Part shown: piece by piece, positions 8,798 to 12,030 of the stretch
Layout: every line of letters starts with the position of its first letter
Numbering within the stretch: position 1 is the stretch's first letter
From: Atribacterota bacterium
GTDB lineage: Bacteria > Atribacterota > Phoenicimicrobiia > Phoenicimicrobiales > Stramentimicrobiaceae
Assembly (NCBI GenBank): GCA_040767965.1
Contig: JAXGNR010000010.1
Location: 53,420 to 117,419 of the forward strand
Reading direction: 5' to 3'
DNA length: 64,000 nucleotides
Translations under genes and position numbers: made by a program
Notes under the pieces: generated by a model
Told to the model about the DNA's origin: nothing
Database searches by the model: none
The model's input: only the letters and a program-made list of their open reading frames with translations

Positions 8798-9736
8798 ATG
8801 GTTAAAATTGCCAGTGATATAACTGAACTGATTGGGCATACTCCATTAATTAGTTTAAATAGAATAACTGAAAACACTGAGATAAAGATTATTGCAAAAC
8901 TGGAATTTTTCAATCCGGGAGGCAGTATAAAAGACCGAATTGGTTTACATGATAGTAGCTGCAGAAAAACAGGGAAGTGTTTTAAAAAGATTCTGTAATT
9001 GTTGAGCCAACCAGTGGGAATACACAGGAACTGTAACTTTGGCTTTTGTTTGTGCAGTTAGAGGATACAAATTGATTCTTACCATGCCGGAGACAATGAG
9101 TGTTGAGTGAAGAAAATGCTGGAAATATTTGGGGCTGAGATTGTTTTAACTCCAGGGAATGAAGGCATGCAGGAGTCATCAGTAAAGCAGAAGAGATTGT
9201 CAGAAGAATCCACAATCTTTTATGCCTCAGCAATCAATAATCCTGCTAATCCTGAAATTCATCAAAGAACCACCGTGATTGGAAATCTGGGAAGACACAG
9301 AGGGCCATAAGATATCCTGGTTTCTGGAGTGGGAACAGAGGAAATAATAACTGGGATATCCTTGCAATCAAAAAGATGAAATCATCAGTTAAAACAATTG
9401 CAGTCGAACCTGCGAATTCTCCCTGTCTTTTCCGGCGGAGAGCCTGGTGTATACATAAAATTCAGGTATTGGTGCTGGTTTTGTAAGCCAGCTATTCTAG
9501 ACAGAAGTATTATTGATGAAATAATCAAAGTTACTGATTTATGTAGCTTTAATTTAGTGCTGTACACTTGCGAAAGAGGAAGCGAATTTTACAGGTATAT
9601 CTGCAGGTGCAGCAGTCTGGGCAGCACTAAAGATAGCCAGCAGGAAAGAAAATAAAGAAAAACAACTTCAGAAACATTCTTCCGGAGGCCCCATATGGTC
9701 TTTGCTTGTCTTTCAACTGAGCTTTTTCAAGACTAA
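8798..9736 (+). pseudogene. cysK: Cysteine synthase A, multiply frameshifted (pseudogene or sequencing errors)
   Basis: LIGHTPLI, AKLEFFNPGGSIKDRIG, EPTSGNT, NPANPEIH, AVEP fragments in shifting frames; ends TELFQD*. Confidence 0.8.
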
Positions 9737-9774
9737 AAAGATAGTTGTAAAGATAGTTGGGTCTATAATTGAAA

Positions 9775-10020
9775 AATAACATTCAACTATAGAATAGTCT
9801 GATCAATCAGGATAGTCAAACAACTTTCTTTGTGCCAGAATAATACATATGGCCGAAGGAGCATTTGTGGCTTTTGGGGTTTGTCCAAAGACAACTTGTT
9901 TGTCTTAGGTGACTCGATCTGAACTGCCGGATGTTCCTCGGCCTCCTGTATAAGTCTAATGGGAAGATGCCTTTAAAGTGGCTATTATAGACGCGATAAT
10001 ACAGGAGGCCAGGCCACAAA
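9775..10020 (+). ncRNA. Putative IS110 bridge RNA (target-binding and donor-binding loops); boundaries approximate
   Basis: Stem GGCCTCCTGTAT/ATACAGGAGGCC encloses ATGGGAAG (same as right-end sequence) and ATTATAGAC (reverse complement of left end GTCTATAAT); stem GGAGCATTTG/CGGATGTTCC encloses TTGGG and TGAAC, matching the insertion flanks. Confidence 0.75.
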
Positions 10021-10036
10021 ACAGGAGGAGAAGAAA

Positions 10037-11242
10037 ATGAAAAGACTATCCGGTGGAATCGATATCGGAAGATACACACATCATATGATTATTCTGGATG
10101 AGAAAGAACAGATCCTATACCAGAGGAGCCTACCCCATCAATTAGGGGAAATAAAGGAAACCATGAAACAGTTGAAATCTTTACAGAAAAAAGAAAATGC
10201 TCAGCTTTCCTTTGCCTTAGAGGGTAAAAACGGTTACAGTAATCCCCTGGACCGGCTGCTTTTATCCGAGGGTTTTACTCTCTACAATGTGGATAATTAC
10301 AAACTCAAACGCTTCCGGGAGGCATTTGCCGGAGAGTGGCGGGATGATAACAGAGATGCCCTGATGCTCTCTAAGATGCTAAACTTAAAAGAACATATTA
10401 ATGCTAAAAAGGAAAAGGTCTTTATCGAAATAACAAAACCTTCCCTCATTCCTGAAAGCTTGAAACTGTTTTCCCGTCATCAGCAGCTTTTAATTGATGA
10501 AAAGATCAGACTGACCAATCGTCTGGGCAAGAAATTGCTGGAAGTCTGTCCTGAGCTATTAACCTTGGGTAAATTAAAATATCAGAAGATCATTGCCATC
10601 CTGGCCAAATATCCGGATTTTTCAAGATACTCCAGGATAACCCTCAAATCTCTGTTAAAGATACCGGGAATCGGCAAAAAGCAGGCACCACACCTATTGG
10701 CCGGGTTGCATGAGTTAGCCTATATGCCAGACCTAACTGATATTTACAAAACCATTATCTCCTCCTATAGCAGACGTATCCTGCAATTACAAAAAGAGAT
10801 CAAAGAAATTGATACAAAGATGGACGAAATAGGACAACAGGATAATTCAATCAGACATTTAAAGAGCATACCCGGAGTAGCGACCAAACTGGCCAGCCGC
10901 TTTCTTGGAGAAATCGGTGATATCAGCCGTTTCCCCTCAGAGAAGAATTTAGCCATCTACTGTGGTATCGCCTGTGTTAACAATGCTTCCGGTAAAACGA
11001 ATAAGATCAAAGCAGTCTATAAGGCCAACAAGATTGCCAAACAAACCTTGATTATGATGGCCGGCTGCAGTATCCGGGTGAATCCTCAGTGTCGGGATTA
11101 TTATCTCAAAAAACGAACAGAAGGGAAAGCTCATAATCATGCCCTGAGATGTCTGGCCAGGCAGATGATTAAAGTCATTTACCGGATGCTAACCGAAGAC
11201 AGAGATTATCAGATAAAAAGAGAAGCTTTGAAAGTGGCATAA
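10037..11242 (+). CDS. IS110-family DEDD recombinase/transposase
   Basis: GIDIG, ALEG, DDNRDA (DEDD), SIPGVA, NASGK catalytic Ser loop, ALRCLARQM. Confidence 0.95.
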   Translation: MKRLSGGIDIGRYTHHMIILDEKEQILYQRSLPHQLGEIKETMKQLKSLQKKENAQLSFALEGKNGYSNPLDRLLLSEGFTLYNVDNYKLKRFREAFAGEWRDDNRDALMLSKMLNLKEHINAKKEKVFIEITKPSLIPESLKLFSRHQQLLIDEKIRLTNRLGKKLLEVCPELLTLGKLKYQKIIAILAKYPDFSRYSRITLKSLLKIPGIGKKQAPHLLAGLHELAYMPDLTDIYKTIISSYSRRILQLQKEIKEIDTKMDEIGQQDNSIRHLKSIPGVATKLASRFLGEIGDISRFPSEKNLAIYCGIACVNNASGKTNKIKAVYKANKIAKQTLIMMAGCSIRVNPQCRDYYLKKRTEGKAHNHALRCLARQMIKVIYRMLTEDRDYQIKREALKVA

Positions 11243-11291
11243 AAAAAGTTTAAAAATTAATTGATTTTTCAGATGGGAAGTTCATTAGTTC

Positions 11292-11341
11292 CAACATTTG
11301 ACATTGTCTTAGTGAAATGTCAAATGTTGAGACCTGACCCC
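11292..11341. repeat. REP-like palindrome (GGGGTCAGGTCT type)
   Basis: 14-bp perfect inverted repeat CAACATTTGACATT/AATGTCAAATGTTG followed by AGACCTGACCCC. Confidence 0.6.
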
Positions 11342-11388
11342 TGAACTGTAATTATCTGCCCGTTAAAAGCAATGGAGGTTAATTTCTG

Positions 11389-12030
11389 ATGTTTAAAATT
11401 TTAAAAGAAGATATCCAAAATGTATTTGCTAAAGATCCTGCTGCCAAGAGCGTATTAGAAGTTATTCTATGTTATCCAGGCCTTCATGCTATTTGGCTTC
11501 ATCGTGTTGCTCACTGGCTCTATAAAGTTAAATTATATACTATTGCCCGAATCATTTCTCATATCAGTCGCTTTTTGACTGGTATCGAAATACATCCTGG
11601 TGCCAGAATAGGGAGAAGATTTTTTATTGATCATGGTATGGGGGTTGTGATTGGAGAAACAACTGAAATTGGGGATGATGTTCTTCTATATCAGGGAGTT
11701 GTCTTAGGCGGGAAAAGTATGGAAAAAAAGAAACGCCACCCAACTTTGGGTAATAATGTAATAATCGGTGCTGGAGCAATCATTCTCGGTGCCTTAAACA
11801 TTGGAGATTATGCAAAGGTAGGTGCCGGGACAATTGTTGTAAAAGATGTTCCCTCTCATTCAACTGTTATGGGAATTCCAGGGAAGAACAGTAAAGATTT
11901 TAATACAGGGAAAACTGACACAGAAAATCCTGATAAATTATCTATACCTGTATCAAAATTAATTCTCTGGCCTCTGGAAGAACAGGGGAAAAGTGAAAAT
12001 AAGCATAGTAATTGTAATATAAAAAAATGA
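11389..12030 (+). CDS. cysE: Serine O-acetyltransferase
   Basis: [43 protein letters not shown]. Confidence 0.95.

Follow-up and report, generated by a model that had tools for sequence, protein, structure and literature searches.

An IS110-group insertion sequence of an Atribacterota bacterium, with a probable bridge RNA of its own and a probable TC crossover core

Does an Atribacterota bacterium carry a complete mobile element that encodes the RNA by which its own recombinase would be guided, and at which dinucleotide does such an element cross over? The question is raised by a 64,000-nucleotide stretch of contig JAXGNR010000010.1 (hereafter the window, within which all positions are counted), for which an earlier note, made from the letters alone, had proposed an insertion sequence (IS) of the IS110 group with a readable bridge RNA and a GT core. 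We conclude with considerable confidence that window 9762-11283 is a complete, intact IS110-group insertion sequence with a bridge RNA of its own. Its crossover dinucleotide, however, is TC and not GT. The features of the element are collected in Table 1.

The intact element with a 401-residue enzyme proposed in the earlier note is borne out by the open reading frame at 10037-11242, whose product scores above the family cut-offs for PF01548 (DEDD_Tnp_IS110; E = 2.7e-18, 66.6 bits against a cut-off of 29, residues 7-172), PF02371 (Transposase_20; E = 1e-21, 77.5 bits against 21.3) and the NCBIfam equivalog NF033542, 'IS110 family RNA-guided transposase' (160.3 bits, cut-off 140). The putative catalytic residues are D9, E62, D104, D107 and S318, which are invariant in the 14 homologues (71-93% identity) on which invariance was judged. 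In an alignment with IS621, E62, D104 and D107 fall on E60, D102 and D105, within a weak N-terminal stretch, and S318-G319 falls on the serine of the IS621 ESG motif, equated with S241; equating the positions of the two proteins in this way appears to need an offset of two residues in the chain numbering. D9 was assigned through the N-terminal GIDIG motif and not through this alignment. The element has the features of IS110 as opposed to IS1111, namely a left end (273 nt) much longer than the right end (39 nt), with the RNA structure in the left end. The sole possible sub-terminal repeat is 7 bp long and A/T-rich (TTTTTCA at 11265-11271, TGAAAAA at 9770-9776).

We compared the element with metagenome relatives, using the best 80 of 242 stretches that encode related proteins, and with the genome to which the window belongs (G000; 2.33 Mb in 30 contigs). 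Left ends were compared at 60 loci with at least 300 nt upstream, 58 of them distinct, and right ends at 73 loci with at least 48 nt downstream. Other copies show the same ends as the window element, a point on which the earlier note had made its reading depend: (G)GG-TCTATAAT is common to 57 of the 58 distinct upstream regions and is preceded by unrelated DNA, the exception being the metagenome contig L097 described below, and AGATGGGAAGT terminates 72 of the 73 downstream regions, the remaining locus (L055) being a mis-hit of the pattern whose frame stops early. In the window the left end reads ...AGTTGGGTCTATAATTGAAAAA (9755-9776) and the right end ...TTGATTTTTCAGATGGGAAGTTCATTAG (11261-11288).

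The left end of the window folds with -77.8 kcal/mol (z = -3.3), and none of 200 shuffled sequences folds as well. Two stems pointed out in the earlier note were recovered. The 12-bp stem at 9940-9951/9999-10010 is perfectly complementary and present in the minimum-free-energy fold, and all ten positions of the stem at 9858-9867/9928-9937 are paired, three as G-U. The latter stem belongs to a longer helix (9856-9871/9926-9939) and surrounds TTTTGGGGT (9872-9880) and TCTGAAC (9918-9924). The target-binding loop lies 5' of the donor-binding loop, which agrees with the IS621-type bridge RNA that had been proposed for this left end.

A consensus was then derived from 55 distinct left ends, aligned with MAFFT and folded with RNAalifold; as MAFFT misaligned the variable parts of the stems, these were folded sequence by sequence instead. 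The fold and covariation analysis that the earlier note had suggested came out in favour of the structure. The 40 core pairs show standard pairing in 98.4% of cells, against 32-49% when the partners are slid by one to three columns, and the covariation score of 0.113 (0.091 +/- 0.003 in shuffles) is reached by none of 500 shuffles. Changes on both sides of a pair occur in 23 cells, compared with 6.1 +/- 2.1 in shuffles. The outer stem of the donor loop persists with 7-12 bp although its 47 distinct arm pairs differ greatly in sequence, and the inner hairpin of the target loop is retained in 49 distinct loop sequences among the 55. Judged from these alignments and folds, the stems are kept across the 80 related metagenome loci despite sequence change. 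No Rfam family matches the left end at E <= 1 in a scan of window 9000-12000, and the three weak hits of that scan lie outside the left end and below their gathering scores.

For IS621, the available part of PMC11208160 describes left guides that read like the top strand, right guides that are antisense to it, and a core included in both. The donor-binding loop of the window element obeys these strand rules. ATGGGAAG stands at 9959-9966 and again at 11273-11280 (four occurrences within the 64 kb), and ATTATAGAC (9984-9992) is complementary, in reverse, to GTCTATAAT (9761-9769), neither 9-mer occurring a second time in the 64 kb. Hence AUGGGAAG is sense to the right end, that is, to the left side of the circle junction, and AUUAUAGA(C) is antisense to the core plus the left end. 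The donor guides match the ends of the element, as had been claimed, but the right donor match of 9 nt consists of 8 guide bases and one handshake base.

The guides of the target-binding loop were examined against the flanks of the relatives. Over 61 non-redundant loci the right target guide matches the right flank at 9 of 9 positions in 42, at 8 in 10 and at 7 in 5, the poorest matches being 6/9 in one locus, 5/9 in two and 4/9 in one. At the four variable positions of this guide 210 of 244 comparisons match, against 169 +/- 5 when flanks are shuffled among loci, and none of 10000 shuffles reaches the observed value. The guide classes are found at their own class of flank in 3/3 (AATC), 7/9 (GGCT) and 31/35 (GGTC) cases. 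Some loci, such as L048 and L049, share a right flank and have different left flanks, and therefore represent separate insertions into repeat families. The left target guide is GGGG plus core in nearly all of the 60 loci tested, and so is the left flank. Covariation of guide and flank is seen just 5' of GGGG (27/60 matches, 16.5 +/- 3.3 expected, 3 of 5000 shuffles) and is absent at positions -7 and -8 of the left flank in the same loci. The commonest left guide is GGGGUC, i.e. the left target plus TC; the GGGGUU of the window would pair too, its U forming a wobble with a G of the bottom strand. The earlier note had seen a partial match between the target loop and the empty site. That match is real, and its incompleteness comes from the poor site of the window copy and not from an unreadable loop; the same positions match the flank at 9/9 in 42 of 61 related loci.

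Could the structure of the left end instead be a leader that serves translation or stability of the transposase message and guides nothing, with the matches to the ends being sub-terminal repeats bound by protein? AGGAGG (10003-10008) does lie in the 3' arm of the donor loop, near the true ribosome-binding site, and the RNA has not been observed directly. Such a leader, however, predicts no change of the right target guide with the host flank, and the guide does change with it across independent insertions of the AATC, GGCT and GGTC classes. Moreover, loop order, strand rules and handshake positions are all as the available accounts of IS621 give them. We regard the leader explanation as extremely improbable, and keep the reading of the left end as a bridge RNA.

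Two further features of the guides were observed. In four loci (L046, L076, L105 and L107) the left donor guide is AAUUCAGAAG instead of AAUGGGAAG, with right ends unchanged (AGATGGGAAGT); the changed letters resemble the right junction (GT-TCAG). In the window, 9875-9883 and 9914-9921 show that the 3' part of the left target guide is complementary to the 5' part of the right one. This complementarity is found in 32 distinct guide combinations (GGUC/GACC, GGCUG/CAGCC, GGUU/GAUC), with a mean duplex energy of -5.27 against -4.61 +/- 0.25 when partners are swapped (14/2000), and in the GGCUG class it costs the match of the core to the target. It may reflect a self-closed loop, or it may be a by-product of the target repeat GGTC-A-GGTC.

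The window alone leaves the crossover dinucleotide undecided, since both candidates flank the element: GT as GG-GT-C... and AA-GT-T..., TC as GGG-TC-T... and AGT-TC-A.... In the GT frame, that of the earlier note, the ends read AGTTGG-GTCTATAAT and TTGATTTTTCAGATGGGAAGT-TCATT, with GT at 9761-9762 and 11280-11281. Three lines of evidence carry the TC core: the empty sites, the junction in L097 and the handshake behaviour of the leftover 3' bases. Unoccupied target repeats were found in 49 unique contexts, among the flanks of related loci and in G000; 45 read GGG-TC-RT and four GGG-T-TC-RT. Arms of the type GGG(G)TCAGGTCT number nine in G000, and there are none with TT. The internal junction of right and left end in L097 reads GATGGGAAGT-TC-TATAATT, with two T's. 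As to the third line, the available part of PMC11208158 states for IS621 that handshake guides pair with position 7 of the non-cognate, not the cognate, DNA. Both leftover bases behave in this way: the A that follows the right target guide pairs with T7 of the donor but not with G7 of the target, and the C that follows the right donor guide pairs with G7 of the target but not with T7 of the donor. This pairing holds in the TC frame only.

The same element and mechanism with a GT core would have CTATAAT...ATGGGAA flanked by GT, a junction AAGT-CTATAAT and a 16-nt spacer. Several points favour it: the window has GT beside either end of the element; GAUCUGAAC for the target and AUUAUAGAC for the donor become right guides of 9 nt that include the complement of the core; GU closes the left target guide at 40 of the 60 loci; and the four unoccupied sites with the extra T read GGGTTCAGG. 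Yet a GT frame predicts empty sites of the form GGGGTTCAGG for the 42 of 60 occupied sites with at least four G in the left flank, and this form is found in 0 of the 49 contexts, 45 of which have GGG(G)TCAGG; the internal junction of L097 has two T's (AAGTTCTATAAT), and its outer crossover lies at the C of a pseudo-donor that lacks GT. A GT core is accordingly very improbable to our minds, and the earlier assignment has to be given up for TC.

With the ends joined through TC, the circle promoter therefore is TTGATT-N17-TATAAT. The earlier note had arrived at TTGATT-N16-TATAAT by way of a GT join; the arithmetic was right and the two halves do lie on opposite ends, but the spacer is 17 with TC. 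Scored as a promoter, the L097 junction gives TTGATT-17-TATAAT with 10 of 12 matches to consensus. The TATAAT of the integrated window copy has no qualifying -35 box upstream. The window has the same hexamers and ends as L097, and its joined ends would build a sigma-70 promoter upstream of the RNA.

From an anatomy, a conservation, a covariation of guides with flanks, a core and a junction sequence that are all observed, we infer transcription, binding of the RNA by the protein and recombination, with a mechanism transferred from IS621. The element would leave as a circle in which the right end is joined to the left end through the TC core, creating the sigma-70 promoter TTGATT-N17-TATAAT, from which the left end would be transcribed into a bridge RNA of ~240 nt, expected to run from about 9776 to about 10016 and not to be made from the left end alone. 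The donor-binding loop of this RNA would hold the circle junction and the target-binding loop a chromosomal site (N)GGGG-TC-AGATC, through (U)GGGGUU on the left and GAUCUGA on the right. Two short handshake guides, AC with donor GT and C with target G, would favour strand exchange, which the 401-residue DEDD/Ser recombinase would perform.

Several observations weigh against this interpretation. On the side of the RNA, only five pairs have changes on both sides, a count matched by 133 of 500 shuffles, and the aligned left ends are related, with the structure derived from the same alignment. On the side of the guides, only one base of the dinucleotide core is paired by the left donor guide, G replaces U at the first core position of the left target guide in 19 of the 60 loci, and the guides taken alone also fit the GT frame, in which the right target and right donor guides each pair at 9/9. 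Between the predicted 12-mer TGGGGTCAGATC and the flanks of the window copy there is agreement at 7 of 12 positions only, and the right side has four of the five mismatches. The record of the junction is a single metagenome contig (L097). A stricter junction pattern gave 0 matches in viral contigs and in 0 of 86 genomes of the phylum; a looser one matched at least 117 stretches of viral contigs, with the right-end motif in none among the matches listed. No RNA start, circle or empty site of the window copy was seen in four sequencing runs, which consist of assembled contigs without joints, so that neither presence nor absence of a circle follows from them. Contigs of the RNA run X15 cover 9759-10263 and 10531-11234; being assembled, they give no start or strand, and they may be DNA.

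Table 1. Coordinates of the insertion sequence, its bridge RNA, guides, core and promoter halves, and of the adjoining palindrome (positions in the window)
Feature	Position	Strand	Basis or remark
Left copy of the TC core	9762-9763	+	Directly 5' of TATAAT; core from empty sites and L097 junction
-10 box TATAAT of the junction promoter	9764-9769	+	Conserved in 57/58 distinct left ends
Left end, non-coding, encodes the bridge RNA, 273 nt	9764-10036	+	Related loci conserved from here on, flanks differ
Bridge RNA core, with closing stem 9850-9854/10012-10016 around both stem-loops	9850-10016	+	RNAalifold consensus
Target-binding loop: outer stem 9856-9871/9926-9939, inner hairpin 9883-9913	9856-9939	+	Consensus, per-sequence folds
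Left target guide UUGGGGUU (GGGG 9876-9879, core positions 9880-9881)	9874-9881	+	GGGG matches the conserved left flank
Right target guide GAUCUGA, reverse complement of TC+AGATC	9916-9922	+	Covariation of guide and right flank in 61 loci
Target-loop handshake guide AC, predicted to pair with donor GT 11280-11281	9923-9924	+	TC frame and IS621 rule; AC constant in all loci
Donor-binding loop: outer stem 9940-9951/9999-10010, middle helix 9954-9957/9994-9997, inner stem 9969-9971/9980-9982	9940-10010	+	
Left donor guide AUGGGAAG, identical to right end 11273-11280	9959-9966	+	
Right donor guide AUUAUAGA, reverse complement of TCTATAAT 9762-9769	9984-9991	+	Frame from empty sites and L097 junction
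Handshake base C9992, pairs with the G before the target core	9992	+	
Recombinase gene, 401 aa	10037-11242	+	PF01548, PF02371, NF033542, alignment with IS621 chain 8wt6, invariant residues
Right end, 39 nt	11243-11281	+	72/73 related loci end in ...AGATGGGAAGT
-35 box TTGATT of the junction promoter	11261-11266	+	
Right copy of the TC core	11282-11283	+	
Rest of the hit REP-like palindrome: degenerate 5' arm, hairpin 11292-11329, intact 3' arm AGACCTGACCCC	11284-11342	.	

The targets of the element family are arms of palindromes that resemble repetitive extragenic palindromic (REP) sequences, e.g. GGGGTCAGGTCTCAACATTTGACAT...ATGTCAAATGTTGAGACCTGACCCC, the arm starting GGGGTCAGGTCT.... Palindromes of the family with arms GGGGTCAGGTCT(C/T)(A/C)ACATTTGACAT lie on contigs C4, C5, C11, C17 and C19 of G000 and at window 11292-11342; arms of this form number nine in G000. 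Related repeats with other arm endings (GGCTTCACAA..., AAATCTTTATT..., AGATACTGTCTTGAAAATCA...) are present in metagenome loci, each hit by elements with the matching guide. The window copy sits in a degenerate palindrome arm between a broken cysK and an intact cysE. The cysK upstream of the element (8798-9655) is split over at least three frames, and 14 substitutions and 10 small gaps separate the window from a landfill-metagenome contig over 9207-9537; the split gene is either a true pseudogene or the product of insertion and deletion errors in the assembly.

The RNA of the window predicts the target TGGGG-TC-AGATC, and the 5' arm at the site reads TTGGG-TC-ATTAGTTC instead of GGGG-TC-AGGTCT, so that the site fits the guides on the left side and in the core, with 1 of 5 positions on the right. 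In G000 nine sites differ from the predicted 12-mer by one mismatch and 71 by two at most. Near-identical copies of the element occupy better sites: GGGG-TC-AGATAC in L028, and ...TC-AGATAACC in contigs of runs X1 and X2. A search of G000 for the empty site of L028 returned only diverged copies of a second repeat, on C4 and C9. The insertion in the window was either half-matched or off-target, with the left side and the core alone fitting, or the arm decayed afterwards. Insertion at a half match has been reported for IS621, whose excision is said to need recognition of the donor arms only (10.64898/2026.08.31.748434, in the part available).

This poor fit raises the possibility that the window copy, while of the kind described, is a stranded and inactive relic. 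Besides the mismatches at 5 of 12 positions, the other traces of the element in G000 speak for it. The only other full-length copy (C8:127071-128594, locus L002:1500-3060) is 90% identical and has decayed, its frame being broken (89 residues, then stops) and its right end lost after TCAGA, and on C4 there is a solo left end of 33 bp (C4:5145-5177, L003:1501-1533; GGGGTCTATAAT...CAACTATA), 100% identical to the window. Against a relic, the window copy has an open frame and intact catalytic residues, promoter halves and donor guides, a contig of another metagenome is identical to it at another site, and excision in IS621, as just cited, depends on the donor arms only. That contig, of 1603 nt and from a digester, shows 0 differences over 9759-11284 (1526 bases) and has another right flank; L028, whose protein is 99.75% identical to that of the window copy, lies at a third site. 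These identities at other sites would point to recent mobility. We consider a relic unlikely. A live element is favoured by the open frame, the intact guides, ends and promoter halves and the identical contig elsewhere, all of them features of sequence.

Where the C8 copy has lost its right end, it has instead a perfect 19-bp inverted repeat of itself (GCTAGTTGAATGGTCAGAA ... TTCTGACCATTCAACTAGC). The 33-bp fragment on C4 stops at an internal CTATA resembling the terminus and is followed by unrelated open reading frames; since these lie in the following 1.4 kb, the fragment was rejected as a third full copy.

Related proteins number 684 at E <= 0.001, with 71-100% identity among the 120 matches listed, and a 72%-identical protein carries the source name 'Candidatus Atribacteria'. 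A match at E <= 1e-40 was found in 11 of 86 genomes of the phylum, and a search of genome contigs with the single protein gave only four loci, two of them fragments. Four loci with 78-87% protein identity (L011-L014) lie in bins labelled Aminicenantes, Anaerolineales, Acholeplasmataceae and 'Candidatus Oleihabitans', which indicates either horizontal spread among bacteria of anaerobic digesters and sediments or mis-binned short contigs.

The contig that preserves the junction deserves a description of its own. L097:1100-2768 is a permuted copy of a related element, in the order transposase, right end, junction, left end up to ...AATGGGAAGATGC and cognate right target AGGCTTCACAAG; on its left side the cognate target (TGGGG-TC) is joined to the middle of the donor-loop DNA. 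Its left end includes the first half of the donor loop only. From this arrangement it follows that the crossover used a donor look-alike in the donor-loop gene (ATGGGAAGA-TGC-CTATAAAAAG), at C and without GT, and L097 resembles the product of a circle whose own bridge-RNA gene supplied the donor look-alike for recombination. A chimera of the assembly is unlikely, because the words common to the joints are at most ~7 nt long; it is still one contig. The junction promoter would stay assembled in a copy of this type. A leachate-metagenome contig of run X5 follows the left end of the window exactly over 9759-9992 and then continues with unrelated letters from AAGATGGGGAAG. The match breaks off at 9992, directly behind the right donor guide and its handshake base; this could be a further breakpoint at a look-alike of the terminus, or the contig could stem from a diverged relative.

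One could go further and suppose that the lineage is an orthogonal system of bridge recombinases which follows its own rules, namely a TC core, a self-closed or auto-inhibited target loop and a donor-loop gene that mimics the donor. We think this improbable and offer it as speculation. If the donor-loop gene does mimic the donor, a circle can insert in permuted form, as in L097, and the permuted copy, keeping its junction promoter assembled, would express a truncated RNA with the target loop only.

How does the element compare with known systems? To judge from the available parts of the IS621 papers (Escherichia coli; PMC11208160, PMC11208158), the two share a DEDD (RuvC-like) domain and a Tnp domain with a catalytic serine, a long left and a short right end, an RNA in the left end whose target-binding loop precedes the donor-binding loop, left guides in sense and right guides in antisense with a shared 2-nt core, handshake bases 3' of the right guides, and REP-like targets. 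They differ in several respects. The proteins are barely detectable as relatives (phmmer E = 1.6e-4, and a significant alignment over the C-terminal 145 residues alone), and that of the window has 401 residues against 328 in the IS621 chain. The core is TC here and CT in IS621, and the RNA has ~240 nt compared with 177 nt. A predicted extra closing stem surrounds both loops here, backed by one-sided changes only; the left donor guide falls short of the whole core; and the left target guide carries a flank-matching signal at about 5-6 positions only. A search of solved structures with the recombinase returned only IS621 and ISCro4, both through the C-terminal domain. The ISCro4 recombinase (PDB 9t56), known from its database listing, belongs to the same family and aligns over the same domain, and its E = 4.8e-4 indicates no close relationship. 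ISPpu9 (PMC12288879) and ISPpu10 (10.64898/2026.03.19.712850) of Pseudomonas putida are likewise described, in the accessible portions of these sources, as inserting in REP arms; the comparison is by description, not by sequence. The window element is only distantly related to IS621, and shows every testable feature of the family.

Bridge RNAs have been predicted in 85.7% of the IS110 elements of ISfinder (PMC11208160, from the part available), and the window element therefore belongs to an already known kind of RNA-guided recombinase. Within the literature on bridge RNA, IS110 and IS621 and on IS110 in Atribacter we found no description of this element family, the supplementary lists of orthologues lying outside the search. 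It is a possible candidate for a new bridge-editing orthologue, as the earlier note had put it. Programmable tools that insert, invert or excise DNA are being developed from bridge recombinases, and with divergent orthologues a wider range of cores and guide rules becomes available. For such use the change from GT to TC matters in practice, as a construct built on the GT junction would lack one base.

For the organism itself the finding is an ordinary one: G000 would harbour one live IS110 copy, to judge by its intact features, next to one decayed copy and one fragment. For the family, it amounts to a natural data set in which some 60 independent insertions, covariation and a preserved junction fix the core, the junction and the guide code without experiment.

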